A stretch of DNA of 50,259 nucleotides. It comes from an uncultured Planctomycetia bacterium (lineage in GTDB: Bacteria > Omnitrophota > Gorgyraeia > Pluralincolimonadales > CAZUZR01). Below the pieces are notes generated by a model. That model was not told the DNA's origin, made no database searches, and saw nothing but the letters and a program-made list of their open reading frames with translations. The stretch spans positions 1 to 50,259 of the forward strand of contig CAZXJX010000001.1 in NCBI GenBank assembly GCA_964641235.1, given 5' to 3'. Below are positions 7,845 to 50,259 of the stretch, piece by piece (position 1 is the first letter of the stretch; each line of letters begins with the position of its first letter). The position numbers were made by a program, and so were the translations under genes.

Positions 7845-8385
7845 GTTTAAAAACGGCCTTACTATAAAACTGGAAGGGCAGTTATTTCAGATTATAGAAT
7901 TTCAACATGTCAAACCCGGCAAGGGAGGGGCCTTTGTCAAGACGAAACTGCGTAGTTTAACCACGGGCAACGTCCTCGAAAAGACTTTTCGTGCCGGCGA
8001 GAAAGTCGAGGATGCTTTCATCGAATACAAGAAACTTCAATTCCTTTATTCCTCAGGCGATGATTATCATTTTATGGACCAAGAGACTTTCGAACAATTT
8101 GGGTTAAACGTTCAGCAGCTTGGGGACGTCGTACATTACCTAAAAGAGAACATAACAGTTACGGCTTCATTCTTCGAAGGCAAATTAATTGATCTCGAAC
8201 CGCCCATATTCGTTGAGCTTAAAGTCGTCGAAGCCGAGCCCGGATTAAAGGGCGATACCGCAAAGAGCGGGACAAAGTCCGTAAAGCTGGAAACAGGATA
8301 CATTATCCAGGCGCCGTTATTTATAGAAGCGGACGATGTCTTAAAGATAGATACCCGCACCGGCGAATATGCGGAGAGGGTATAA
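7828..8385 (+). CDS. efp: Elongation factor P
   Basis: STSEFKNGL.I...G....I.EFQHVKPGKGGAFVKTKL is the canonical EF-P N-terminus. Confidence 0.95.
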   Translation: MISTSEFKNGLTIKLEGQLFQIIEFQHVKPGKGGAFVKTKLRSLTTGNVLEKTFRAGEKVEDAFIEYKKLQFLYSSGDDYHFMDQETFEQFGLNVQQLGDVVHYLKENITVTASFFEGKLIDLEPPIFVELKVVEAEPGLKGDTAKSGTKSVKLETGYIIQAPLFIEADDVLKIDTRTGEYAERV

Positions 8386-39984: not shown

Positions 39985-40236
39985 ATGTTCCATACAGGAG
40001 TTAGCGTAGCGGCGCTTTTGGTAGCTTTGGGTGTAGGTTACATTATTCGCTTAAAGGCAGAAGAGGTAAAAGGCGGGCTCAGAACATTAGGCGTTGTGAT
40101 TAGCTATATTATCATTATAGTAAGTATCCTCGCCGGGGCATGTCAACTTTATCTTACGCATTATAAGGTAGTTGGCGGCAAGGCAATTAGCTGTCCTATG
40201 CCTCATGTTATGATGCAAGAGCCGATGAAAAAATAG
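39985..40236 (+). CDS. Hypothetical small membrane protein
   Basis: 83 aa, two predicted TM helices, SD GGGGG upstream. Confidence 0.4.
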   Translation: MFHTGVSVAALLVALGVGYIIRLKAEEVKGGLRTLGVVISYIIIIVSILAGACQLYLTHYKVVGGKAISCPMPHVMMQEPMKK

Positions 40237-40246
40237 GTTGCGGCAC

Positions 40247-40274
40247 TTGAAAATCGCTAGTATTGTGCTATACT
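40247..40274 (+). promoter_or_regulatory. Extended -10 promoter of the structured leader
   Basis: TTGAAA (40247-40252), 16 nt spacer, TGC-TATACT (40266-40274). Confidence 0.5.
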
Positions 40275-40280
40275 TATCTT

Positions 40281-40401
40281 GAAGCCAAACAGAGGGCTGC
40301 AAGCCGTTCCGTAAGGAATGGGGCGCAAACTCTGGCGTTCATTTGACAAAAAGAGGTTGTTTTGACCCCATCCGTGGTAGGTTTGCAGGGTGGGGTTTTT
40401 T
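40281..40401 (+). promoter_or_regulatory. Riboswitch-like structured leader ending in an intrinsic terminator (possible GEMM-I / c-di-GMP-I relative)
   Basis: GNRA hairpin CCGTTCC-GTAA-GGAATGG (40304-40321). Blocks GCCAAAC...GGGGCGCAAACTCTGG...CCGTGGTAGGT resemble GGCAAACC...GGGACGCAAAGCCUCCGG...CCGGUAGGU of the Vc2 aptamer. Terminator ACCCCATCC/GGGTGGGGT plus T6 overlaps the putative 3' aptamer strand. Confidence 0.35.
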
Positions 40402-40455
40402 ATTTGAGGCCAGTTTTAAGGCCTGCAAATCCCCTGGAGAGGGAGGTGAAAAAAG

Positions 40456-40599
40456 ATGAAACGGTTCCTTGAAATCTTGACAGGGATTCTAATAGGAGCC
40501 TTGGTCGGAATATTCTATCGCGATGCTTTGGCGCCATATCTTCCTCTGTTAGTCATCCTAGCAATCGTGCTGTTCATCCGACACGTAGAAGTCAAGTAA
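40456..40599 (+). CDS. 47-aa hydrophobic peptide downstream of the structured leader
   Basis: MKRFLEILTGILIGALVGIFYRDALAPYLPLLVILAIVLFIRHVEVK. SD GGGAGGTG 7 nt upstream. Absent from the ORF track. Confidence 0.45.
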   Translation: MKRFLEILTGILIGALVGIFYRDALAPYLPLLVILAIVLFIRHVEVK

Positions 40600-40626
40600 C
40601 CTCATCGCTCCTTAAAAGAGAATCCG

Positions 40627-40662
40627 AAAAAGCTAAGGCAGTCAATGCCTTAGCTTTTTTTT
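40627..40662 (+). terminator. Strong (bidirectional-looking) terminator
   Basis: AGCTAAGGCA (40631-40640) pairs with TGCCTTAGCT (40646-40655). Flanked by AAAA upstream and T8 downstream. Confidence 0.85.
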
Positions 40663-40666
40663 AATA

Positions 40667-40695
40667 TTGACTCCTTCCGCTACTTATTTTATAAT
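40667..40695 (+). promoter_or_regulatory. Near-consensus promoter
   Basis: TTGACT (40667-40672), 17 nt spacer, TATAAT (40690-40695). Confidence 0.55.
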
Positions 40696-40730
40696 AAGTC
40701 ATCTGGACACAAGCGAGCGGAGGAAGAGAA

Positions 40731-40844
40731 GTGTCGCTGAGATTTAATCCTTTTTTCGATTTCAAACCTAGCCCATATCTTTTCTGTGGGGTAATAATCG
40801 GCATCTTTTTAGCAGCCGTTATACGCGCCATTCTTAAGATTTAA
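40731..40844 (+). CDS. 37-aa hydrophobic peptide
   Basis: VSLRFNPFFDFKPSPYLFCGVIIGIFLAAVIRAILKI. GTG start with SD GGAGGAAG upstream. Absent from the ORF track. Confidence 0.35.
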   Translation: MSLRFNPFFDFKPSPYLFCGVIIGIFLAAVIRAILKI

Positions 40845-40853
40845 CCCCCATTT

Positions 40854-41630
40854 ATGAGATTAAGCGAAAAGATAATATTTCTACTTGAGAAGATATTGTC
40901 AAAGATAGGTTCTCTTTTTGATTTATTGGGAGAACGTATCAAAGGCTTATTCTTTGGCCAATTCGGTATAAAACTCACCTATAGAAGAGAGATAATCATA
41001 ATTTTACTTATCATTTCAGCCGTATTAATCTTCGCCGCCTCGCTTAATTGGCTGATATGGTTAGGCATATTTTTAATGACGGTCAATATCTTACTGTGGA
41101 TTATCGTAATTTTTTCTTGGACGCTGGACCCCCTATTAGAAGCCTCCGCATGGGGAAGGTTAGCTTATTTTCACGAACTAAAAAACGAAGTAATAAATTT
41201 TTCAAAAATAAATTTACTGCAGAAATTTTTAGCCAGATTTTTTTCGACTTTTATAATATTAATCTTAGGCTACGCTTTTATATATTTCGGCTTGCAGAAG
41301 ATAACGAATCCTTCTTTTGTTTTTGGCGCAGAACAGCAGGGATTGACGGCGCCCGTTTCAATTCTCGATTTCGTGTATTACAGCGCCATAACTATCGCGA
41401 CCGTCGGTTACGGCGACATTTATCCGATTCATCCTTTCGCCAAGATTTTCGTGCTTACGGAAGTTATTTGCGGCGCCCTTATAGTCATATTTTTAATTTC
41501 ATCCTTTACTTCCATTTCTATACATCTCTCCAGCGAGAGACAACAGGCATTAGTCGGTGAAATCGAGAAAGAGATTAAAGACATAGACGCAATCTTTTCA
41601 GAGTTAAAACAGCTATATAAGGAGAGCTAA
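40854..41630 (+). CDS. Potassium channel family protein (2-TM pore type with extra N-terminal helices)
   Basis: Selectivity filter TVGYGD within ITIATVGYGDIYP. Confidence 0.8.
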   Translation: MRLSEKIIFLLEKILSKIGSLFDLLGERIKGLFFGQFGIKLTYRREIIIILLIISAVLIFAASLNWLIWLGIFLMTVNILLWIIVIFSWTLDPLLEASAWGRLAYFHELKNEVINFSKINLLQKFLARFFSTFIILILGYAFIYFGLQKITNPSFVFGAEQQGLTAPVSILDFVYYSAITIATVGYGDIYPIHPFAKIFVLTEVICGALIVIFLISSFTSISIHLSSERQQALVGEIEKEIKDIDAIFSELKQLYKES

Positions 41631-42163
41631 TGAGAAGGCAACTGATATTCGCTGCATTTACAGCGGCTATTTTCGGTTATTTTTGGCTCGAATCGGCCTG
41701 CTTTTCAGAACAGCCGAACGAAAAAGTATTGAGTTTGGAAAATATCTTCAGGACGAGTTATGCGTTGTCGGGAGATACAAAAGGTGTCACGCAAAAAGGC
41801 GAAGCTGTATATTTATCAAAAGGAAACATTCAGAAGGCGCTTTCAACGTTAAAAAATATAATTATCGAGGAAAAACGCCCGGAGCGGTCTTTCAGCAAAA
41901 GGGACTCAATCAATATAATCGTCTTCAGGGGCATAATGCTTACACAAGGAAAAATAGAGATAGCCAAAGTAGTTTCTAAAGGCAATGACTTTGAAATATA
42001 CGCCAAATATATCGATTTTTCCGAACTGAATATTCCTTCCGAACCGGCTGCTATAATTCCCCTCGGAAAATTGCCGAGAGGGAAATATACGGTGTCCTTA
42101 TATATAAACGATAAATTGCATAAAAAGGCGGAATTTAAAGTAAGGGGATATATACATATTTAA
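41630..42163 (+). CDS. Hypothetical secreted protein
   Basis: N-terminal signal-like helix. No recognisable motif. TAATG overlap with the channel gene. Confidence 0.4.
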   Translation: MRRQLIFAAFTAAIFGYFWLESACFSEQPNEKVLSLENIFRTSYALSGDTKGVTQKGEAVYLSKGNIQKALSTLKNIIIEEKRPERSFSKRDSINIIVFRGIMLTQGKIEIAKVVSKGNDFEIYAKYIDFSELNIPSEPAAIIPLGKLPRGKYTVSLYINDKLHKKAEFKVRGYIHI

Positions 42164-42181
42164 AAGATAACAAGGACACTA

Positions 42182-42646
42182 ATGAAGAGATTGCCGCTTA
42201 ATGTAGCCAATTTTTTACATAAACAGAATTTTATTATCGTTTCCACTCTTGACAGAAGAGGCAGTTTGCATAACTCTTGTAAGGGAATAGTGAAGATAAA
42301 TAGAAACGGCGAGATTCATTTGCTCGATCTTTATAGAGGCGGCACATTCAACAATTTAAAACATAATCCGAACATAAGCATCACCGCCGTAGATGAACAT
42401 AAATTCGAGGGTTATTCGCTTAAGGGCAAAGCAAAAATAATAAAAATAGAAGAAATAAAATCCCATCTTTTAAAAGCATGGGAAGAAAAAATCGCCGGCA
42501 GAATAACCCATAGGATTATTAAAAATATTCACGGGGAAACAGGCCATCCACGGCACCCGGAAGCGCTTTTGCCGAAGCCGAAATATCTGATTACTATGAA
42601 AGTGAGCGAGATAATAAATCTTACTCCAAGAGTCTATAATGCGTAA
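42182..42646 (+). CDS. Pyridoxamine 5'-phosphate oxidase-like (FMN-binding split barrel) protein
   Basis: The pattern N....VSTLD..G..H.S..G.....N.........GG.T..NL..NP.ISI..VD is typical of the family. Confidence 0.55.
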   Translation: MKRLPLNVANFLHKQNFIIVSTLDRRGSLHNSCKGIVKINRNGEIHLLDLYRGGTFNNLKHNPNISITAVDEHKFEGYSLKGKAKIIKIEEIKSHLLKAWEEKIAGRITHRIIKNIHGETGHPRHPEALLPKPKYLITMKVSEIINLTPRVYNA

Positions 42647-43349
42647 GCAGAATATCGTCTATATTTTGATATTAACCATAACAGCCCTATTTAGTTATAA
42701 TGCCTACGCAAAAAATCTGCCCAAATGGTTTCCCTTCAATAGAAAAGACGCCCTCAAGGAATGGGAAGAAAAAATATTCAAGGGCAAAGTCCTCTATACC
42801 GTCGAATTAGGGCAGGAGGGCGGATACCTTTCGGCTAAAAGCGAAAGCACCTGTTCGGGTTTGTTGTATAAAATAAGCTTTAATCCCGAGAAATTACCGA
42901 TGATAAGCTGGGAATGGATGGTGATGAAGTTTCCCGAAAAAACCAAAGTCAGTGAGGTAGTCCCCGATAAAAATAAGGGTAAAAATAAGGGGTGGATAGA
43001 ACAGGATGATTATGCCGCAAGGGTATATGTGATATTTCCAAGCAGTAATTTTAAGAAGACAAAGAGCATCGAATATATCTGGGACGAGGATTTGGCCGAA
43101 GGGACGATATTAACAAGCCCTTATTTTAAAAACATCAAGCTCATAGTAGTGAAGTCGGGGAAAAATATCGGTCAGTGGATGCTTGAGAAACGCAATATCT
43201 ACGAGGACTATAAAAAGGCCTTTGGCAAGGCACCTACTGCCTGGGTTGGCGCAATAGCGCTGATGACCGACACGGACAATACGCTGTCTACCGCTGAGGC
43301 ATTGTACAAAAACATAAAAGTGGGGTACAAAGATGAATCGAAAGAATAG
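42639..43349 (+). CDS. Secreted DUF3047-like protein
   Basis: Signal peptide. W.E..F.G...Y, ISW.W.V and DDYAARVYV blocks recalled from DUF3047 proteins. Confidence 0.4.
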   Translation: MRKQNIVYILILTITALFSYNAYAKNLPKWFPFNRKDALKEWEEKIFKGKVLYTVELGQEGGYLSAKSESTCSGLLYKISFNPEKLPMISWEWMVMKFPEKTKVSEVVPDKNKGKNKGWIEQDDYAARVYVIFPSSNFKKTKSIEYIWDEDLAEGTILTSPYFKNIKLIVVKSGKNIGQWMLEKRNIYEDYKKAFGKAPTAWVGAIALMTDTDNTLSTAEALYKNIKVGYKDESKE

Positions 43350-43749
43350 AAGGAGAAGAGTTTTCGCGAATAAGATACACAGGGAAATATTCTTAGCTAT
43401 CTTTTTGCCTGTCTTTTTGACGGCGGCCATCGTTTCGGTTGCCATTTATTATTTAATCTTCGGCATTACGGCCGAACAGGTCGCTATCCCCGAGGCCATC
43501 GCCTATAATCTCATTCCCGCCTCTGAAAAAGTAACGGTTATTTTATTATTTTCTGCTTTGCCCATCATCCTCGCCATACTGATTTTCGCCTACAAGGTCT
43601 CTCATAAAATAGTCGGCCCTTTTGATAGGATAGTAAGGGAGCTGGATGAACGCATAAAAGGCGAAAATCGCAACCACATAACGGTAAGGAAGGGCGATAA
43701 ATTCAAGCCTTTGGTAGACAATATTAATAAATTATTGGATAAGATTTAG
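43333..43749 (+). CDS. Hypothetical two-TM membrane protein with short cytoplasmic helix
   Basis: Two hydrophobic helices followed by an HK.VGPF.RI.REL segment (HAMP-like start). Confidence 0.4.
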   Translation: MNRKNRRRRVFANKIHREIFLAIFLPVFLTAAIVSVAIYYLIFGITAEQVAIPEAIAYNLIPASEKVTVILLFSALPIILAILIFAYKVSHKIVGPFDRIVRELDERIKGENRNHITVRKGDKFKPLVDNINKLLDKI

Positions 43750-43768
43750 CGGCAGACCTTCAAAAGGA

Positions 43769-44089
43769 ATGAAAATGTTAAAAGAAAAGATTGCCAGCCT
43801 GAGCGCTTTGGTGGATTATCAAGAAGGCTCAATCGTAAGCAAGGAGATAATAAAAAAGGATAAAGGTACGGTGACACTCTTCGCCTTTGATAAAGGGCAA
43901 GGATTAAGCGAGCATACCGCGCCGTTCGACGCCTTGGTTTACGTCTTTGTCGGTAAGGCGGAGATCGTTATCTCGGGCAATCCCCATTATTTAAAAGCAG
44001 GCGAAATCATCATAATGCCGGCGAACAAGCCGCATGCCTTAAAGGCGACGGAACGTTTCAAGATGATGCTGGTGATGGTAAGGGCTTGA
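43769..44089 (+). CDS. Cupin domain protein
   Basis: Cupin_2 pattern G..L.EH.AP.DALVYV..G.AEI.I.G.....AGE.I.MPAN.PHAL. Confidence 0.8.
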   Translation: MKMLKEKIASLSALVDYQEGSIVSKEIIKKDKGTVTLFAFDKGQGLSEHTAPFDALVYVFVGKAEIVISGNPHYLKAGEIIIMPANKPHALKATERFKMMLVMVRA

Positions 44090-44096
44090 AATCACG

Positions 44097-44156
44097 ATCA
44101 AGCCCTCCTCAAAAGACCCGGAGTTGCGTAATAAGTACGAAGGAATTAGTAAATAG
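44097..44156 (+). pseudogene. Startless C-terminal remnant of the 43-aa Zn-ribbon ORF
   Basis: Reads IKPSSKDPELRNKYEGISK* against IKPSEKDPELCNKCEEK* in the intact copy (48613-48744). Both Cys are replaced (R, Y), and a stop lies 6 codons upstream with no start. Confidence 0.7.
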
Positions 44157-44167
44157 TGGTATAATAT
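44097..44167 (+). repeat. Direct repeat DR1a (Zn-ribbon gene 3' remnant plus extended -10 promoter)
   Basis: Hand alignment to 48691-48762 gives 7 substitutions and one 1-nt indel over 71 nt. Contains TGGTATAAT (44157-44165). Confidence 0.9.
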
Positions 44168-44221
44168 GACCAAAGCCACAAAGAGGCGGTCAATGAGGTC
44201 TAAATCAGGTTAAATCTAAAA

Positions 44222-44255
44222 GGCAACCCCTAGTTAGAGAGTTGCCTTTTATTTT
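44222..44255. terminator. Hairpin plus T-run; inverted copy of the hairpin at 48557-48583
   Basis: GGCAAC-ccctagttagaga-GTTGCC then TTTTATTTT. The inner asymmetric bases (cccct...agaga) are the reverse complement of those in the 48.56-kb copy. Confidence 0.55.
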
Positions 44256-44274
44256 ATAAGGAAAGGAGGGAGAT

Positions 44275-44379
44275 ATGAAAAAACAAATTGATAAAATAAT
44301 ATGGTTGGTCGGAATTTTATTTGCTCCTATTATTTTAATTTTTAGATTTATATTTAAAACAAAAGAGCAAGGAGGATGA
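44275..44379 (+). CDS. 34-aa hydrophobic peptide
   Basis: MKKQIDKIIWLVGILFAPIILIFRFIFKTKEQGG. Strong SD AAAGGAGGGAG. The stop is 1 nt before the PEGA gene ATG. Absent from the ORF track. Confidence 0.4.
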   Translation: MKKQIDKIIWLVGILFAPIILIFRFIFKTKEQGG

Positions 44380-44380
44380 A

Positions 44381-44848
44381 ATGAGGAATAGCTTTTGGGT
44401 AATTATTATTTTCTTAATGATGGTTTTCGCATCGGGATGTGCAACTATTACGACGGGTCGGTATCAAAGAGTTCCTATAGATTCTAATCCTCAAGAAGCA
44501 AATGTTAGTGTGAGTTCTGGATATCGAGGCGTGACGCCATGTTCGTTTGATTTGCAGAGAAACAAGGATCACGTTATTAAAATAGCGAAGAAAGGATATC
44601 AAACAGCACAGGTTACATTAAAGAAAACAATATGTGGCTCAACGGCTGGAAACTTAATAATCGGCGGAGTAATAGGGCTTGGAGTGGACGCAATAAGCGG
44701 CGCTATGTTTAAATTAGTACCGGAAAATGTTTATGTCGATTTAGTGCCGGGCGAAGAGAGTCAAGTTGTTGTAATTGAGCCTCCAAAACAAAAGCCGGAA
44801 GAAACAAAAAAAGAGACAGCAGAACCAACAACGAATATAAGTAAGTAA
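44381..44848 (+). CDS. PEGA-domain lipoprotein with C-terminal glycine-zipper-like helix
   Basis: Lipobox FASGC. PEGA-like ...IDSNPQEANVSV.....GVTPC.FDL......VIKIAKKGYQ. GxxxG-rich hydrophobic segment. Confidence 0.65.
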   Translation: MRNSFWVIIIFLMMVFASGCATITTGRYQRVPIDSNPQEANVSVSSGYRGVTPCSFDLQRNKDHVIKIAKKGYQTAQVTLKKTICGSTAGNLIIGGVIGLGVDAISGAMFKLVPENVYVDLVPGEESQVVVIEPPKQKPEETKKETAEPTTNISK

Positions 44849-44875
44849 AATTTTATATTTTTGATGCAATTTTTG

Positions 44876-44945
44876 GTGCCATCCTACAAGGCGCCACCCT
44901 ACGAGATTAAAATTTAGATTATATAGGGTGCCCCCAAATAGGATG
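44876..44945. repeat. Four-site nested inverted-repeat array (A-B...B'-A') upstream of the radical SAM gene
   Basis: Tandem 15-mers gtgCCATCCTAcaag and gcgCCACCCTAcgag (cores at 44880-44886 and 44895-44901). Mirrored by TAGGGTG (44924-44930) and TAGGATG (44939-44945), also 15 nt apart, around a 22-nt AT-rich centre. Confidence 0.7.
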
Positions 44946-45024
44946 ACTCCTAAGAGTTATCTCCTGAAAGTTATTGAAGGAGCAAAAGGGGAAAATAGAG
45001 CGATAAGAAGTAAAAACCCTTTCT

Positions 45025-45861
45025 ATGCTGAAAATCCGCGAAATCCATTGCAAAACCCTCCTTAATAAATCAAGTATTTGCGATTTCACCATTAATTGTT
45101 ATGTCGGCTGTACCCACCGGTGTCTGTATTGCTATGCCCGCTATATGAAGAAATTCAAAGAAAGGCCTGAGGATTGGGGTGAATTTGTAGATGTTAAGAT
45201 AAACGCCCCTGAAATCCTGGCAAAACAAATTAAAAAGATAAAGCTACCCAAAGAGGTGTATATGAGCACTGTCTGCGATGGCTGGCAACCTGTTGAGGAA
45301 AAATATCGGCTCTCAAGAGATTGCCTTAAGATACTTTTAGAAGCGGGCCTTAATGTCTCCATACTTACAAAAAGCAGTCTTGTAAGGCGCGATTTTGACC
45401 TTTTAGGGGCTTATAATAAAGCATCTAGCTTAGGTGTGACTATTACCACCCTCGACCCCAAACTAAAGGAAACCCTAGAGCCCTACGCTTCAGACCCTCA
45501 AGATAGAATAAATGTCCTTAAAGAAGCTCAAGAAAAGGGCATAAAAACCTGGGTTTTTTTAGGGCCACTTGTGCCGGTATTTACGGATACCGAAGCCAAT
45601 TTAGAAGCTATTTTCAGCAGTTTAAAAAACCTTGACCTGGAAGAAATCTATATTGATAGATTAAATCCTCGCTGGGGTGTCTCAGAAAGCCTTAAAAAGG
45701 GATTAGAGAGAAGGGGAGAGGATTATAATAAAGTTAGCTCGTTACTTAGTCACTACACCAGCCGTACCAAATACCAGAATTACAGCCGCAGATTAAAGCA
45801 CAATGCCTTAAAATTCGCCTCCAAATACGGCCTCTCCGATGAGCTTAGGTTTTGCTTTTAA
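45025..45861 (+). CDS. Radical SAM protein of the SplB-like / DNA-repair-photolyase (COG1533) type
   Basis: KTLLNKSSICDFTINCYVGCTHRCLYCYARYM is the CX3CX2C cluster in the context typical of COG1533. No SPASM-type extra Cys clusters. Confidence 0.75.
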   Translation: MLKIREIHCKTLLNKSSICDFTINCYVGCTHRCLYCYARYMKKFKERPEDWGEFVDVKINAPEILAKQIKKIKLPKEVYMSTVCDGWQPVEEKYRLSRDCLKILLEAGLNVSILTKSSLVRRDFDLLGAYNKASSLGVTITTLDPKLKETLEPYASDPQDRINVLKEAQEKGIKTWVFLGPLVPVFTDTEANLEAIFSSLKNLDLEEIYIDRLNPRWGVSESLKKGLERRGEDYNKVSSLLSHYTSRTKYQNYSRRLKHNALKFASKYGLSDELRFCF

Positions 45862-45874
45862 GCCTTTAAAAGAG

Positions 45875-45894
45875 GTGGTATAATATAACCGATG
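45875..45894 (+). promoter_or_regulatory. Third copy of the GTGGTATAATATAAyCGATG promoter element
   Basis: 19 of 20 nt identical to 48751-48770. Extended -10 TGGTATAAT. Confidence 0.55.
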
Positions 45895-45908
45895 TAGATA
45901 GAAAATGA

Positions 45909-45937
45909 TTGACAAAGATAAGGTTTCATGATAATAT
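45909..45937 (+). promoter_or_regulatory. Second promoter in the radical SAM / methyltransferase spacer
   Basis: TTGACA (45909-45914), 17 nt spacer, TAATAT (45932-45937). Confidence 0.45.
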
Positions 45938-46005
45938 TCTTTTTAGAATTAATGATAAATAAAAGTGGTATGTTTCGAAGGGGGAACTGCCACGTAAAAA
46001 TAATT

Positions 46006-46036
46006 AAAACCTTCGCTTGAAAGGCGAAGGTTTTTT
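46006..46036 (+). terminator. Rho-independent terminator closing a short orphan transcript
   Basis: CCTTCGC (46010-46016) pairs with GCGAAGG (46024-46030), preceded by AAAA and followed by TTTTTT. Confidence 0.75.
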
Positions 46037-46200
46037 ATTTAGAGATTATGCAAACAATTACGTCTGTCTCTTGTTTATGTGTAGGTTTTAAAATAATCAA
46101 GAAATTTTTATTAGATTTCGCGAGCCTTTACGTCTATTATAATAATAGAAGGAAAGAAGAGATTAATAAGGTATAATATTGGAGACTAACGAAAAATACT

Positions 46201-47616
46201 ATGAATAAGTCTTTAATAGATAAAGAATTTATTGAAAATATCAAAAATGATTCTAGAAATCTTTCTTCTTTTGTGAAAGGACAAAACGAAGGAAATGTTA
46301 TTCATTTGCTCAACAAAATCGGAAGACTGGATGACAATTTTAATAAAGATTCCTTAATGCCTTTACTTGATAGTGAAAATGAAGATATCAGAGCCCTTGC
46401 AATAAAAAATTTGGCAAAACTCGAAGACATCCGCTTATTAACTATTTTCTTGGCTAAAGCTAAAGAAGATAAAGGTACAACAGTCAGGCGTGAAGCAGTT
46501 TCAGCGATAGGTAGACTGCGTAATCAAAAAGCAATACCATTTTTAATAGAATTATTGCATGATTCTGATCCTAAGGTTGTTATGCAGGCAATAAGGGGCC
46601 TGCTTGTTTTTAAATATAATCAAGAAGTCAGACTGAGACTAAAGAAGCTTCTAGCGCATCCCAACGAGATGATCAAAGAGGTAATAAATAAAGAATTGAA
46701 CGGTTCCAATCATATTAGCAAGAGCAGTTTAAAGCACAATGAATCGCCAGTATTTTTACAGAATGTGGTTGTTCATGCTGATGTATTAGAGGTTCTTAAA
46801 TACTTAGAAGAAGAATCTGTGCATCTAACTTTTACTTCACCACCATATTATAATGCGCGAGACTACTCAATTTATCAGAGTTATGAAGAGTACTTAAATT
46901 TCCTGGAGCGTGTCTTTAAGGAAGTTCATAGGGTAACAAAAGAAGGTAGATTTTTTATATTGAATACGTCCCCAATTATAATCCCTCGCGTCAGTCGTCA
47001 ACATTCAAGCAGGCGGTATCCTATCCCATTTGATATACATCCACGGTTAGTAAATATGGGGTGGGAGTTTATTGACGATATTGTTTGGGTAAAGCCAGAG
47101 GCATGTGTTAAAAATAGGAATGCAGGATTTCTCCAGCATAGGAAACCTTTAGCATATAAGCCAAATTCCGTTTCTGAGATGTTGATGGTTTACAGAAAGA
47201 AAACAGATAAGTTAATAGATTGGAATATTGAGCAGTATGATTGGGAGACGATAAAGAAAAGCAAAGTTGCGGATAAATATGAAACAACCAACGTATGGAA
47301 GATTGATCCGACTTTCGATAAAACACACACAGCCGTATTCCCTATTGAGTTATGTAATAGAGTCATAAAGTTCTATTCTTATGAAGGAGATCTAGTTTTT
47401 GATCCCTTTGCTGGTAGCGGAACGCTCGGTAGGGCAGCCATAAATCTTAAAAGGTATTTTTTCTTGGTAGATAAAGAAGAGAGATATTTCTCGAGAATGA
47501 AAGAAACATTAAATAAAAGCGGCAGTTTATTTCTGAAGAATAAATTGCCACAATTTTTTGATATAAAAACTTTTATTGCGAGGGCTAAAAATGACGCTAA
47601 CGGAAAAAGTAACTAA
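46201..47616 (+). CDS. HEAT-repeat domain fused to a beta-class N4-cytosine/N6-adenine DNA methyltransferase
   Basis: The N-terminal ~150 aa have PBS-lyase-type HEAT repeats (DSENEDIRALAIKNLAKL, TVRREAVSAIGRL, DSDPKVVMQAIRGL). Motif IV FTSPPYY then precedes motif I FDPFAGSGT. Confidence 0.8.
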   Translation: MNKSLIDKEFIENIKNDSRNLSSFVKGQNEGNVIHLLNKIGRLDDNFNKDSLMPLLDSENEDIRALAIKNLAKLEDIRLLTIFLAKAKEDKGTTVRREAVSAIGRLRNQKAIPFLIELLHDSDPKVVMQAIRGLLVFKYNQEVRLRLKKLLAHPNEMIKEVINKELNGSNHISKSSLKHNESPVFLQNVVVHADVLEVLKYLEEESVHLTFTSPPYYNARDYSIYQSYEEYLNFLERVFKEVHRVTKEGRFFILNTSPIIIPRVSRQHSSRRYPIPFDIHPRLVNMGWEFIDDIVWVKPEACVKNRNAGFLQHRKPLAYKPNSVSEMLMVYRKKTDKLIDWNIEQYDWETIKKSKVADKYETTNVWKIDPTFDKTHTAVFPIELCNRVIKFYSYEGDLVFDPFAGSGTLGRAAINLKRYFFLVDKEERYFSRMKETLNKSGSLFLKNKLPQFFDIKTFIARAKNDANGKSN

Positions 47617-48508
47617 AAACATTATAATTAAACTTGTCAAAGGACAGGATTATCGCATTGAAATTGTCACTCTTATAAATGCCGCATTTTTACAATATGC
47701 GATAGACTTTTTCAAGCGAGTCGTCGATGCTAAATTAAAAAATGAAAAAATTACAACAGATTGGTATAAAAAAGAATTTCTTAATCCTGATCTGCCATCG
47801 AACGAAATCGCGATTCATTCCGGTCTTAATAAAAAGACTATAATGAATATGTATAACTCTGCGAAGAAAGAAATAGTTATTGATGCGGCAAACGAGCATT
47901 ATGATGCGCTATATGAGGCAATACAAAGCTTAGTAGACACCGATGGAGAAATAGATATAACTCTTACGATTAAACTTCGGGGAGTGAGCGTAGATCTGAA
48001 TGTTAGCGAGAGTTTAATAGCGATAAATACACTTGCTGTTAAAAGAGCTGAATTAAGGGGTGGTTTATGGAGTACTGCTGGTAAAAGAGTAGAAAAACCT
48101 TTAATGATTACGTTATGCAAAATTTATGGAGTTGCAGATGAGTTCTATAAGATAAAAGTTGCTAATCAAGAAGTTGATAATGACATTGATTTTGAGCGAG
48201 AAATCGATTTTTATCTTGTTGATCCAAAGGTAAGTAAAGAATATAAATGTGAAGTTAAACTAATGGGAAGAGGCAACCCGGAAAGTGCGGACGCCGTTAT
48301 AGCAAGAGATAGTAAAGTATTCATTGCAGATAAATTGTCGGATACTAACAAGAAGCAATTAAATAAGCTAAAAATAGAATGGGTCGAATTGCATGATGGA
48401 TATCAGCGATTCGAAAAAGTACTTTCGAATTTGAAAATTCCGCATAATAATTTTGAAGGAGATATTGATTATAAGCTCGAAGAAATATTTAAAGAAATTT
48501 TTAAATAG
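47591..48508 (+). CDS. Probable type II restriction endonuclease (PD-(D/E)XK-like)
   Basis: Overlaps the methyltransferase by 26 nt, with SD GAGGG before ATG 47591. Candidate catalytic pattern EREIDFYLVD...CEVKLMG (D...ExK). No other recognisable family. Confidence 0.5.
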   Translation: MTLTEKVTKNIIIKLVKGQDYRIEIVTLINAAFLQYAIDFFKRVVDAKLKNEKITTDWYKKEFLNPDLPSNEIAIHSGLNKKTIMNMYNSAKKEIVIDAANEHYDALYEAIQSLVDTDGEIDITLTIKLRGVSVDLNVSESLIAINTLAVKRAELRGGLWSTAGKRVEKPLMITLCKIYGVADEFYKIKVANQEVDNDIDFEREIDFYLVDPKVSKEYKCEVKLMGRGNPESADAVIARDSKVFIADKLSDTNKKQLNKLKIEWVELHDGYQRFEKVLSNLKIPHNNFEGDIDYKLEEIFKEIFK

Positions 48509-48556
48509 AAAGTTAGAGATTAATAAAGAGTGGATAGAAAGTAGAAAATGTTATAA

Positions 48557-48588
48557 GGCAACTCTCTAAAAGATAGGGGTTGCTTTTT
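48557..48588 (+). terminator. Terminator after the endonuclease gene; inverted copy of the 44222 hairpin
   Basis: GGCAACTCT...AGGGGTTGC followed by TTTTT. Confidence 0.6.
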
Positions 48589-48612
48589 AGTTTGTGAAGG
48601 GGAGCATAAAAG

Positions 48613-48744
48613 ATGCTTAAAAGATGCAAAAAGTGCAAGGTTCCGCTGGAAGGATTTATGTATAAATGGATAGCGTCCAAGATATTTAAAATCAAACCCT
48701 CCGAAAAAGATCCGGAGTTGTGTAATAAGTGCGAAGAGAAGTAG
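48613..48744 (+). CDS. 43-aa Zn-ribbon-like protein
   Basis: MLKRCKKCKVPLEGFMYKWIASKIFKIKPSEKDPELCNKCEEK has two CxxC pairs. SD GGGGAG. Absent from the ORF track. The opposite-strand 87-aa track ORF here is rejected. Confidence 0.5.
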   Translation: MLKRCKKCKVPLEGFMYKWIASKIFKIKPSEKDPELCNKCEEK

Positions 48745-48762
48745 TAAATAGTGGTATAATAT
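48691..48762 (+). repeat. Direct repeat DR1b (3' end of the intact Zn-ribbon gene plus extended -10 promoter)
   Basis: Partner of 44097-44167. TGGTATAAT at 48752-48760 drives the following operon. Confidence 0.9.
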
Positions 48763-48789
48763 AATCGATGCCGCAAAAGGAGGTGTTAA

Positions 48790-49053
48790 ATGAAATCAAA
48801 TAATGAAGAAGATAATGAAGAAGATAATGAATGGCTTGCAGTAATTGGTCGATCGCTAGCTTTTCTATGTTTAGTTCAAGCAGATCTTCGCAATAAAGAT
48901 TTAGCTACTCAAGGTCGGTTTCTTGAACTACTCGGTCTCGCGCGAAAGGAAGCAGCTGCGCTACTCGGAACATCTCCCGCATCGCTAACAGAATTGATTC
49001 GTCTAGCTACAAAGAAAAAAAGAAGGAAACGTGGATATGAAAAAAAAGGTTGA
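48790..49053 (+). CDS. Small HTH protein A (sigma-70 region-4/LuxR-like HTH, acidic head, basic tail)
   Basis: SD AAAGGAGG. NNEEDNEEDNE head, hydrophobic helix IGRSLAFLCLV, HTH LGLARKEAAALLGTSPASLTELIRLA, tail KKKRRKRG. Confidence 0.55.
   Translation: MKSNNEEDNEEDNEWLAVIGRSLAFLCLVQADLRNKDLATQGRFLELLGLARKEAAALLGTSPASLTELIRLATKKKRRKRGYEKKG
48802..48831 (+). repeat. 12-nt tandem repeat (2.5 copies) inside small HTH gene A
   Basis: aatgaagaagat aatgaagaagat aatgaa, encoding NEEDNEEDNE. Confidence 0.9.
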
Positions 49054-49273
49054 TATATCATCGGATAGTAAAAGCCTCAGTAGCATCAACGTAGGGCAGC
49101 TAGAAAAACTAACCCGTCTTCTTGCATTGCTAGTTGTAAAAGGTGAATCTCAGCCGGAGAAGATAAAGGTACTTGCTGGTGCGGGTTTTACGAATACCGA
49201 AATAGCCGAATTGTTAGAAATTACGGCCAATGCAGTCAACATAGTGCTACATCGTCTTCGGACCAAGAAGTAA
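49037..49273 (+). CDS. Small HTH protein B (paralogue of A; sigma-70 region-4-like)
   Basis: LTRLLALLVV helix followed by AGFTNTEIAELLEITANAVNIVLHRLRTKK. ATG 49037 (AAGGA 8 nt upstream) is preferred to GTG 49031. Overlaps gene A by 17 nt. Confidence 0.55.
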   Translation: MKKKVDISSDSKSLSSINVGQLEKLTRLLALLVVKGESQPEKIKVLAGAGFTNTEIAELLEITANAVNIVLHRLRTKK

Positions 49274-49295
49274 AATGAATTAACAATAAAGAACA

Positions 49296-50162
49296 ATGGC
49301 CAGAATTAATCAAAAGTTATTTAACCGACTAAAAGAGAAACTTGATTTAAAACCAGCTAGGATATATGAACTTATTGACGCTAAGGTACGAAGTGCATCG
49401 CTTCCGCGTCATCTCGCAGCAATTGCTGTTGCTGCCGAACAAGGAATAAATATTTCAAAATATGCAAGCGGTGAAGACTTGTCTGCAATTCGACAGTCAG
49501 CAATTAGTGCTGCACCTACCCCCATAGTGTTAAAAACGAGTACTTTATCTGATAGGAGTATCTCGCGGTTTCCAGCGAAAGCAAAACGGACTGCTGATAC
49601 TCAAAAGCGACGGGGAACTACTGTTTTTGTTGTACACGGTAGAGACTTAGCAGCACGCGATGCGGTTTTTTCTTTTCTTCGGGCTCTCGGTCTCAGACCT
49701 CTTGAATGGACGCAGGCACTCAAGTTAACAAAAAAGGGAACACCCTATGTTGGTGAAGTGTTGGATGCAGCTTTTGGCGAAGCTGCCGCCATAATTGTTC
49801 TACTTACACCTGATGACGAAGCCAGATTGAAGTCCGAGTTGACTTTTCCACACGATTCTAAAGATGAATGTAAACTGACTGGACAAGCACGTCCCAACGT
49901 TCTGTTTGAAGCCGGTATGGCATTCGGGAAAAATCCGAACTCAACAGTTCTTATACAACTTGGCAACATGCGTCCTTTTAGCGATATTGGCGGTAGACAT
50001 GTTCTACAACTAAATAATAGTGCCACAAGTCGTCAAGAGTTTGTAGTTAAACTAGCTAATGCCGGTTGCAATGTAGATAACTCTGGATTGGACTGGTTGA
50101 AGGAAGGTGATTTTCAGGCGAATCCTGTAAGAGTCAATTCAGTACGTAGGCGTCTTAAGTAG
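49296..50162 (+). CDS. TIR-like (CAP12/PycTIR, COG4271 type) effector-domain protein with uncharacterised N-terminal domain
   Basis: The C-terminal ~180 aa carry TVFVVHGRD, IIVLLTPDDE, ARPNVLFEAGMAFG and RPFSDIGGRHV blocks. The N-terminal ~105 aa are helical then basic, with no known sensor motif. Confidence 0.7.
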   Translation: MARINQKLFNRLKEKLDLKPARIYELIDAKVRSASLPRHLAAIAVAAEQGINISKYASGEDLSAIRQSAISAAPTPIVLKTSTLSDRSISRFPAKAKRTADTQKRRGTTVFVVHGRDLAARDAVFSFLRALGLRPLEWTQALKLTKKGTPYVGEVLDAAFGEAAAIIVLLTPDDEARLKSELTFPHDSKDECKLTGQARPNVLFEAGMAFGKNPNSTVLIQLGNMRPFSDIGGRHVLQLNNSATSRQEFVVKLANAGCNVDNSGLDWLKEGDFQANPVRVNSVRRRLK

Positions 50163-50181
50163 TTTTTAGTGCCATCCTAAA
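50163..50181 (+). repeat. Second copy of the TTTTTrGTGCCATCCTAmA motif
   Basis: 17 of 19 nt identical to 44870-44888. Both copies begin within ~22 nt after the stop codon of the last gene of a DR1-driven unit. Statistical support is weak (see findings). Confidence 0.4.
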
Positions 50182-50210
50182 CTATAAGTTCGAGATGTGC
50201 CATCGAAAAA

Positions 50211-50256
50211 CCCGCCAATTGACCCCCCGAATGCCCAAAATCAGGGCATTGGCGGG
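50211..50256 (+). other. Two-tier hairpin at the window edge
   Basis: Outer CCCGCC/GGCGGG and inner AATGCCC/GGGCATT stems. The window ends before any T-run can be seen. Confidence 0.4.
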
Positions 50257-50259
50257 GGA

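Follow-up and report, generated by a model that had tools for sequence, protein, structure and literature searches.

Diverged direct repeats in a strain-variable, defence-rich region of an uncultured Omnitrophota genome as probable remains of two tandem Zn-ribbon mini-genes

The locus described here raises the question of how two short direct repeats came to flank some 4.6 kb of unrelated genes, and whether the enclosed DNA entered as a single unit. The first-pass annotation of the window (the whole 50,259-nt stretch of DNA that was analysed) had reported 71-nt direct repeats with seven substitutions and one indel, and comparison of the window with itself and with the whole genome recovered the same pair, at this locus only (blastn, 88.9% identity over 72 nt, 7 mismatches, 1 gap, E 4e-14). 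No third copy was found by blastn across the genome's 141 contigs. The significant repeat, whose sole occurrence in the 1.1-Mb genome is at this locus, extends over 44097-44182 and 48691-48777, with 87% identity in its first half (44097-44142 versus 48691-48736) and 85% in its second (44143-44182 versus 48738-48777); extension by local alignment to approximately 44206/48802 is weak, since equally good scores were reached in 47 of 2000 shuffles. The longest exact match between the copies, of about 22 nt, lies inside the putative promoter. Both repeats are real, and consist of one intact and one broken copy of a tiny, very conserved Zn-ribbon gene. The features of the locus are as follows.

43769-44089, + strand: Cupin_2 gene, 106 aa (Pfam Cupin_2, E 2e-9)
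44092-44143, + strand: pseudogene, 3' tail of Zn-ribbon copy A (repeat comparison, blastn, diagnostic bases)
44144-44182, + strand: duplicated flank with stop codons and predicted extended -10 element TGGTATAAT at 44157-44165 (repeat comparison)
44175-44251, + strand: short leader and hairpin A, an inverted copy of hairpin B, terminator-like on both strands
44275-44848, + strand: 34-aa hydrophobic peptide ORF (44275-44379) and PEGA-domain lipoprotein gene (44381-44848; PEGA E 3e-7)
44874-44945, no strand assigned: four-site palindromic array containing GTGCCATCCTA (motif search)
45025-45861, + strand: radical SAM gene, PA0069/Rv2578c/SplB-like (domain search; common to related contigs)
45875-45894, + strand: putative promoter core, third copy (sequence match; kept in sister contig L150)
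45965-46041, + strand: conserved small-RNA-like unit, 5' hairpin followed by an intrinsic terminator (conservation, fold z-score)
46201-48508, + strand: AT-rich type II restriction-modification (R-M) pair, a HEAT-repeat N6/N4 methyltransferase and a CfrBI-like endonuclease (Pfam, GC)
48552-48593, + strand: hairpin B, the terminator behind the R-M pair (sequence comparison)
48613-48744, + strand: intact Zn-ribbon gene copy B, 43 aa, CxxC...CxxC (ORF list, family alignment)
48745-48777, + strand: copy B flank with stop codons and predicted extended -10 element (48752-48760), ahead of the HTH operon (repeat comparison)
48790-50162, + strand: HTH, HTH (sigma-70 region-4-like) and CAP12/Pycsar-type TIR-domain genes (domain search)

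The downstream repeat is, as had been proposed, the 3'-terminal part of an intact ORF of 43 aa, which carries every invariant residue of its family, namely the CxxC...CxxC cysteines together with conserved PLEG and NKC motifs. Relatives were found at 41 genome loci and in 39 protein clusters, with C5, C8, C37 and C40 invariant and a variable Ser/Glu codon in the tail, and the gene is conserved at 85-95% nucleotide identity over many groundwater contigs. The mini-protein has no match in Pfam or NCBIfam, a literature search returned nothing on the family, and no relatives of the gene were found in IMG/VR viral contigs. An AF2 model (pLDDT 81) predicts a helix flanked by two knuckles, for which a fold search found no PDB analogue. 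At the 41 loci the neighbouring genes are mutually unrelated and often defence-associated (HsdM and trypsin-like, four each, and RadC, ResIII, AbiEii, HerA and Schlafen). Among 21 large contigs, 11 have the Zn gene within 10 kb of a contig end as against 5.3 expected, a modest excess (KS p 0.04). Four further 5'-truncated tails were found on other contigs, cut at differing codons; the truncation point is codon 19 in L153, codon 30 in L155 and codon 10 in L058, and codon 27 in the window.

The upstream repeat was described initially as a decayed duplicate close to the cupin stop codon, and its reading frame agrees. The tail begins 3-8 nt past the cupin stop (44089) and reads in frame IKPSSKDPELRNKYE, with no start, with codons 1-26 missing, and with Cys37 and Cys40, both invariant in 47 family members, replaced by Arg and Tyr respectively. 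L155 has the same junction between cupin stop and Zn tail. The two tails of the window differ at six positions, comprising AAG, two bases of TCA, GAT and the two changes that destroy the cysteines. Three of these six (the AAG and both TCA bases) are shared by the remnant with copy A (Zn-A) of relative G018, and also occur in L019; GAT is confined to the window's copy B (Zn-B), G018 Zn-B and L153, and is not found in the remnant. Over just 47 comparable nucleotides, the remnant is 89.4% identical to G018 copy A, with the three shared diagnostic bases, and 87% identical to window copy B. The flank behind the broken tail resembles that of Zn-B and is missing from G018 Zn-A and from L155. Because tail and flank are of these different types, the broken copy appears to be chimeric, which would constitute direct evidence of recombination within the module.

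The gene order in G018 is cupin, Zn-A, a 296-aa gene, Zn-B and a trypsin-like gene. Here an intact 48-aa Zn gene lies 122 nt behind the orthologous cupin gene and a second intact copy lies 1 kb further on, the pair bracketing a 0.9-kb gene that differs from the cargo in the window; the 296-aa product has no homology to the window's TIR protein. Two intact copies are found in G018 only, and 40 of the 41 genome loci have a single copy. The window cupin shares 90% amino acid and 88% nucleotide identity with that of G018 and only 68% with that of the same-family genome G002, whereas the opposite is the case for ThiC (87-88% with G002, versus 74% with G018). The cupin and Zn genes form a block common to the window and G018, and Zn-B is 90% identical to G018 copy B at the nucleotide level. 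Thus the upstream copy has an intact G018 homologue in the same position and has itself lost its start and essential residues. Given the two intact Zn genes of G018 and the one-to-one pairing of the window copies with them, the repeats are probably the remains of two tandem paralogous Zn-ribbon copies, in a mosaic whose parts have been exchanged at short homology anchors. Weighing against this reading, G018 is alone in having two intact copies, the search for an exact empty site found none, the pairing of the tails depends on 4 of 47 positions, and duplication at the moment of insertion would equally give a shared flank of stop codons and promoter.

Further short conserved sequences accompany the repeats. 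The promoter core GTGGTATAATAT has exactly three occurrences in the genome, at 44156, 45875 and 48751, all at this locus; the annotated third copy at 45875-45894 thus stands up to a genome-wide count, with 19 of 20 positions identical between the 20-mers at 45875 and 48751. The shorter TGGTATAAT occurs 18 times genome-wide, such that the extended -10 element is common and the longer core is not. The three core sites were missing from a consensus promoter scan because they have no good -35 element, and function as promoters is suggested by sequence resemblance. As annotated, the two copies in the repeats face different cargo, the 34-aa peptide and PEGA genes in one case and the HTH-HTH-TIR operon in the other. 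The reported inverted recurrence of the terminator hairpin was also recovered, with 33 identities in 37 aligned positions and a 3-nt indel between 48552-48593 and the reverse-complemented 44213-44251. Part of the hairpin A unit (44175-44227) is found again, at approximately 92% identity and differently flanked, on other groundwater contigs, and the whole unit is 74% identical to a sequence in G005:C7. The hairpin B element lies directly 5' of the truncated Zn gene in L153, and is present also in L036, G037, G029 and G038. In groundwater runs X4, X5 and X7, homology breaks off at the boundaries of both Zn gene and hairpin.

The 4.6 kb between the repeats appears to be a mosaic, its component units each having a history of their own. 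The radical SAM gene and its downstream unit, third promoter copy included, occupy matching positions in L150, L151, L152 and L153, which speaks against the earlier view of the radical SAM gene as inserted cargo. These contigs have no R-M pair and no PEGA, cupin or TIR genes, and the genes upstream of radical SAM differ among them; in L153 a truncated Zn tail precedes it. The radical SAM gene is 89-92% identical in L150 and L151, and the peptide and PEGA genes were not found in sister contigs L153 and L150. The small-RNA-like unit, preceded by a predicted TTGACA-17-TAATAT promoter at 45909-45937, is 88-91% identical in class-level relatives and has a fold z-score of -6.1; it has no Rfam match, and Rfam and tRNA scans over the region returned nothing significant. 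The overlapping ORFs of the R-M pair (N6_N4_Mtase, E 2e-41; RE_CfrBI, E 2e-22; Pfam), classed as type II, have a GC content of 0.28-0.38 compared with 0.436 for the genome, and the TIR protein was not found in any of 40 relatives searched; both the low GC and this absence also fit the explanation by tandem paralogs and anchors. The four-site array at 44874-44945 is attC-like in its geometry.

An exact empty site was not found among the relatives. The cupin gene was discarded as a stable anchor for such a comparison, its neighbours differing in every relative; indeed, none of 80 metagenome loci holding cupin has the Zn gene or another window gene nearby. Joints in run X4, from 48735/48741 to 50229/50230 (TIR operon) and from 46040 to 48555 (R-M pair), were considered as empty sites and rejected because the matching sides consist of 25-31 nt of hairpin-like sequence; that no X4 sequence matched solely within 50060-50259 also counts against them. 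The proposal that the segment was acquired by recombination stands in part: the DNA around and between the repeats varies among relatives, conserved modules lie at the junctions and one copy appears chimeric, but a single 4.6-kb insertion is not indicated.

According to the preferred explanation, copies of a 43-48-aa Zn-ribbon gene would have stood in tandem in groundwater Omnitrophota genomes, within a region that varies between strains and is rich in defence genes. Copy A, directly behind cupin as in G018, would have become a pseudogene through loss of codons 1-26 and of its cysteine codons, with copy B remaining intact. The parts of the mosaic would be the peptide and PEGA genes, the resident radical SAM gene with the small-RNA-like unit, the low-GC R-M pair and the TIR operon. 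Neighbourhoods that are otherwise unrelated have a few short conserved sequences in common, namely the Zn gene, the hairpin that belongs to it and the promoter core. These may have served as homology anchors, at which homologous or homology-facilitated illegitimate recombination could swap, insert or delete neighbouring genes. The scars left would be 5'-truncated Zn tails and chimeric flanks, and a dedicated recombinase would not be needed.

A rather unlikely alternative, although the most substantial, is that a segment running from hairpin through cargo and second hairpin to Zn-B and its promoter entered in one step, by a single crossover of Campbell type or by homology-facilitated illegitimate recombination, duplicating an anchor in the Zn tail and promoter region and being reversible by recombination between the repeats. 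Such an event would account for the repetition of tail, stop and promoter as one unit, for a promoter flank common only within this genome and for the chimeric upstream copy, and the weak extension of the repeat does reach the start of the HTH gene. However, 44175-44227 is conserved in other contexts, which weakens the argument from the extension, and the radical SAM gene and downstream unit, inside the segment, sit at matching positions in sister contigs. Moreover, G018 indicates that two copies predate any such insertion, and the 13% divergence appears to lie mostly between the two older copies as opposed to reflecting decay after insertion. Deletion between the repeats had been suggested as possible; no deletion or excision joint was seen in source-sample contigs X1-X3, low-depth assemblies from which rare variants could escape. 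It is very improbable, in turn, that the contig was joined across the Zn repeat from two co-existing strains, leaving the right-hand 1.5 kb (HTH-HTH-TIR) perhaps unlinked to the left. Depth in independent source-sample assemblies falls from approximately 8-11 to 1.4 at 48566-48807 before recovering to 3.7-5, but these are rough whole-contig means, and while no long contig spans 48250-48928, independent contigs do cover the upstream repeat and the cupin and peptide junctions (X1, 44030-44489; X2, 44141-44489). The repeat itself, furthermore, would remain under this explanation.

Site-specific integration, with the Zn tail and promoter as attachment site for a recombinase whose gene would lie past the end of the contig or at another genomic location, is considered very improbable. 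A gene 3' end directly repeated around acquired DNA does resemble attL/attR, the contig stops 1.5 kb past Zn-B, and a separate 11-20-nt motif containing GTGCCATCCTA lies at two gene ends here and at two places on C121 (C1:44876, C1:50169, C121:905 and C121:2214 being its only genomic occurrences); no link of C121 to the sister contigs was found. Against this, the remnant (44097) precedes the intact gene (48613), whereas integration into a 3' end produces the opposite order, the copies are just 87% identical with no identical core, truncation points vary between loci, and the absence of Zn relatives from IMG/VR viral contigs noted above also tells against such an element. The window has no integrase gene, although it ends together with the contig at 50259 and a gene further on would escape notice; of tyrosine recombinase genes (PF00589) the genome has two in all, on C14 and C30. 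The absence of a visible recombinase, remarked upon earlier, was upheld in a domain scan of ten ORFs between 43769 and 50162, which also contain no transposase domain. An integrase island with att duplication was rejected on the grounds of gene order, core and missing end recombinase, and a transposon or IS with target-site duplication because there is no transposase domain, the 86-nt direct repeat is diverged, and the hairpins are terminator-like and single elsewhere. The likeness to a cassette system drawn at first fares poorly, with truncations at different codons, no recombinase in the window and tyrosine recombinase genes on other contigs. There is little expectation that the Zn gene, hairpin and promoter core form a portable module dedicated to the junctions of a cassette-exchange system that assembles and reshuffles defence genes in Omnitrophota and other groundwater lineages, whether recombinase-free or with an unrecognised recombinase, possibly the Zn-ribbon protein itself.

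The locus is best read as a further example of an already known kind, a strain-variable, defence-rich region with recombination scars. Its value lies in showing how such a region may be constructed in a small uncultured Omnitrophota genome, with short conserved modules at the junctions of unrelated genes. Two of its components are easily missed, namely an unannotated family of 43-aa Zn-ribbon genes beside unrelated, often defence, genes, and a small-RNA-like gene, also conserved. Should the Zn gene truly mark points of exchange, Omnitrophota, CPR and DPANN metagenomes could be searched with it for variable islands.

Several known systems invite comparison. Integron gene cassettes likewise comprise same-strand units punctuated by short repeats, with a promoter-bearing module before unrelated genes; in the present locus, however, there is no IntI or attI, the units have their own predicted promoters and terminators, and it is a coding gene that is repeated. 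Islands targeted by tyrosine integrases to the 3' ends of tRNA, tmRNA or protein genes duplicate attL/attR, and here too a direct repeat of a gene 3' end brackets DNA absent from relatives, but with the displaced tail upstream of the intact gene, 87% identity without an exact core, no integrase in the window and truncation points that vary between genomes. Homology-facilitated illegitimate recombination, which uses a one-sided homology anchor and has been described in Acinetobacter and Streptococcus pneumoniae, would account without a recombinase for gene truncation at one of the junctions and for chimerism of the conserved sequence at the second, and is suggested at this locus by the scars. 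A further parallel is offered by variable islands and defence hotspots that lie between conserved genes and exchange their cargo through homologous recombination in the flanks, such as the pneumococcal cps locus between dexB and aliA and the defence hotspots of E. coli, which share with this locus conserved flanks, cargo unrelated between strains and rich in R-M and defence genes, and one low-GC module. The anchors in those systems are large core genes, whereas here they would be a tandem mini-gene of 130 nt, a hairpin of 40 nt and a promoter core of 20 nt, and the truncated anchor copies left behind as scars are a feature of this locus.

The window is the complete contig C1 of a Candidatus Omnitrophota genome (1.1 Mb, 141 contigs) from a groundwater assembly, and the first-pass annotation had described 71-nt direct repeats in it, bracketing a 4.6-kb insertion. 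GC content in the restriction-modification (R-M) stretch is 0.28-0.38, vs 0.436 for the genome. The genes and elements of the locus are as follows.

Features of the locus, in plus-strand order
43769-44089, +, Cupin_2 gene
44092-44143, +, broken tail of a zinc-ribbon (Zn) mini-gene
44157-44165, +, promoter core (putative)
44213-44251, +, hairpin A
44275-44379, +, 34-aa peptide ORF
44381-44848, +, PEGA lipoprotein gene
44874-44945, four-site palindromic array
45025-45861, +, radical SAM gene, PA0069/Rv2578c/SplB-like
45875-45894, +, promoter core, copy 3 (putative)
45965-46041, +, short hairpin-terminated unit
46201-47616, +, HEAT-repeat N6/N4 methyltransferase
47576-48508, +, CfrBI-like endonuclease
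48552-48593, +, hairpin B
48613-48744, +, intact Zn gene
48752-48760, +, promoter (putative)
48790-49273, +, two small HTH proteins
49296-50162, +, TIR-domain protein, CAP12/Pycsar-type

The HEAT-repeat domain at the N-terminus of the R-M methyltransferase (HEAT_2, E 2e-24) is unusual for a type II methyltransferase. The TIR-domain protein comes after the two mini HTH proteins; no cyclase gene is visible, and none of the 40 related genomes searched has a relative of it.

The direct repeat is real, with 87% identity between 44097-44142 and 48691-48736 and 85% between 44143-44182 and 48738-48777; blastn against the whole genome (141 contigs) aligned the copies at 88.9% over 72 nt (E 4e-14) and revealed no further copies. 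As had been reported, the downstream copy forms the 3' end of an intact 43-aa CxxC...CxxC ORF, while the upstream copy, which starts a few bases past the cupin stop and reads in frame as IKPSSKDPELRNKYE, is decayed, with no start and both Cys codons destroyed. The promoter core GTGGTATAATAT has three occurrences in the genome, all of them here; between the 20-mer copies at 45875 and 48751, 19 of 20 nt are identical. Hairpin 48552-48593 aligns with reverse-complemented 44213-44251, the two sharing 33 of 37 aligned positions besides a 3-nt indel. All of the sequence features seen in the first pass are confirmed as present, beyond chance. The promoter function of these elements is putative, judged from the TGGTATAAT consensus alone; a -35/-10 consensus scan did not include the TGGTATAAT elements at this locus among its listed promoters. 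The segment 44150-44262, comprising promoter A, a 50-nt leader and hairpin A ahead of the peptide and PEGA genes, resembles a self-contained short transcription unit or attenuator. Positions 44175-44227 reappear at ~92% identity, between different flanking sequences, on further groundwater contigs; over its full length the unit shares 74% identity with G005:C7:26700-26796, in a related genome.

In G018 (JAUYOH010000109), a genome of the same order and a different family, the same cupin gene precedes two intact Zn genes, the first (copy A) of 48 aa, which are separated by an unrelated 296-aa gene; a trypsin-like gene follows the second (copy B). The cupin genes of the window and G018 share 88% nt and 90% aa identity, and their Zn copies B 90% nt identity. 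A tandem Zn pair behind this cupin therefore exists independently of the 4.6 kb in the window, the DNA between the copies being different. The two Zn tails of the window differ at six positions: AAG (vs AAA) and TCA (vs GAA, two bases) are common to the broken tail, G018 copy A and L019, another Zn locus; GAT (vs GAC) occurs only in the window's intact gene, G018 copy B and sister contig L153; and the last two are the Cys-destroying changes. Given these shared diagnostic bases, the broken tail most plausibly corresponds to copy A and the intact gene to copy B, in which case the 13% divergence of the tails would mostly be an older copy A/B difference rather than decay after duplication. From ~44144 on (stop codons and promoter), the broken copy matches the copy B flank of its own genome, and its flank has no match to those of G018 copy A or L155, a further Zn locus. 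With an A-like tail and a B-like flank, the broken copy appears to be chimeric, the signature of a crossover between paralogs.

The cupin gene itself is phylogenetically discordant. For ThiC, identity is 87-88% with G001 and G002, both of the same family, and 74% with G018, whereas the cupin reverses this pattern (68% to G002, 90% to G018). Homology with G018 begins at the cupin start codon, and the discordance indicates that the acquired block begins there rather than at 44097, the cupin/Zn block itself probably being mobile. Cupin and Zn genes are associated in four places only, namely the window, G018, L155 (both as remnants) and L030 (Zn then cupin), and none of 80 metagenome loci carrying this cupin gene has a Zn gene near it.

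The interior was compared with sister contigs. In L153, 95% nt identity to the window across the two genes upstream of the cupin is followed by a 182-aa gene, a hairpin-B-like hairpin, a Zn gene whose truncation falls at codon 19 and which shares 91% identity with 48667-48736, and, after 33 nt, the radical SAM start. L150 is syntenic with 40195-42646, then carries six unrelated genes, and then matches 45025-45994 at 89%, a stretch that runs from the radical SAM gene through promoter copy 3 and a second promoter into the beginning of the short RNA-like unit. In L151 a transglutaminase-like gene precedes the radical SAM gene (92%), directly after which lies an ORF of at least 220 aa opening with the 5' half of the Zn gene; L152 has the radical SAM gene at 80% and no Zn gene nearby. 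L150 and L153, which both end before the R-M and TIR positions, lack the cupin gene, the broken tail and the PEGA genes. The sister contigs thus show that the radical SAM gene, with the unit that follows it, is resident in the lineage, and that the 4.6 kb is a mosaic.

The resident unit (45965-46041, plus strand, ~77 nt, promoter at 45909-45937) consists of a 5' hairpin with an invariant loop GUUUCGAAGGGGGAAC and an intrinsic terminator. Class-level relatives have it at 88-91% identity, far above protein conservation, with two copies each in G037 and G036; its fold z-score is -6.1, and its summed depth in the groundwater run X4 is very high. There is no Rfam match, and the unit is a candidate new small RNA of Omnitrophota. 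The motif GTGCCATCCTA(CAAAGTGCC), which could be an operator or recombination site, occurs at four genomic places only: within the palindromic array before the radical SAM gene, at 50169-50179 just past the TIR gene, and at positions 905 and 2214 of contig C121 of the same genome, one separating a -10 box from a cation-efflux gene, the other at the contig end just past a STAS gene. The sister contigs lack the motif.

The Zn mini-gene belongs to a family with 41 loci in species-representative genomes, mostly Omnitrophota but including bins labelled Elusimicrobia, CPR, Deltaproteobacteria and DPANN archaea. Its 39 protein clusters have neither name nor Pfam domain, and the mini-protein gave no Pfam or NCBIfam match. 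Residues C5, C8, P11, L12, E13, G14, C37, N38 and C40 are invariant, and an AF2 model (pLDDT 81), for which a fold search returned no PDB analogue, predicts a central amphipathic helix clamped by two knuckles. Some genomes carry the domain at the N-terminal end of longer proteins (L151 3029-3730; L018 8224-8712; L008, L009), including a 162-aa membrane protein and 109-136-aa double-zinc proteins. The genes next to it at one locus bear no relation to those at another, and defence and mobile-element genes are frequent among them; viral contigs yielded no copy. Three other groundwater metagenomes contain many contigs with 85-95% matches to the Zn gene (48612-48743) and, separately, to the hairpin (48546-48589), homology ending at the element edges. 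Of 21 large contigs, 11 carry the gene no more than 10 kb from an end, vs 5.3 expected (KS p 0.04), a weak indication that Zn genes sit near assembly-breaking regions.

Broken copies recur elsewhere. L155 has an intact Zn gene and, 1.4 kb downstream, a cupin-stop/Zn-tail junction of the window type; two cupin 3'-end remnants (2011-2052 and 2944-2967) flank a 292-aa gene there. These remnants are nested between the intact gene and the tail, the same scar type in another organism. In L058, from an Elusimicrobia-labelled bin, an exact 33-nt direct repeat (7957-7989 and 8261-8293) surrounds a 5'-truncated Zn gene. The cut points, at codons 27 (window), 19 (L153), 30 (L155) and 10 (L058), are all different, a pattern that points to illegitimate joints, and not to a recombinase site, as the probable source of the truncated tails.

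Two paralogous Zn copies, one of them broken, a chimeric flank and a mosaic interior are established for the locus, together with recurrent truncated tails with variable cut points and short conserved modules amid non-conserved surroundings. We infer that the short modules serve as homology anchors, at which homologous or homology-facilitated illegitimate recombination would exchange neighbouring genes, the truncated Zn tails being scars of such exchange. The earlier proposal of insertion by recombination is partly supported: the chimeric flank and its crossover signature favour it, but the tandem Zn pair in G018 and the resident radical SAM gene do not. A one-step insertion that duplicated its own anchor, for which the same observations count on either side, is accordingly unlikely. 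A site-specific system is highly improbable given the differing cut points; no recombinase gene was found in the window, as had been noted.

Strain heterogeneity, or a chimeric or uncertain join at the intact Zn gene, may also contribute, and is kept as a possibility because source-run depth over 48566-50259 is about half that over 43000-48300 in independent assemblies, no independent contig spans the intact Zn gene, and no long contig crosses 48250-48928. No deletion joints between the repeats were found in the source-sample assemblies, which are of low depth and consist of contigs only. Exchange at short anchors is the preferred reading, and the analysis yields two by-products, a Zn mini-gene family that had gone unannotated and the conserved unit resembling a small RNA. 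The locus itself is a further variable island of a type already known, with recombination scars in its conserved flanks.
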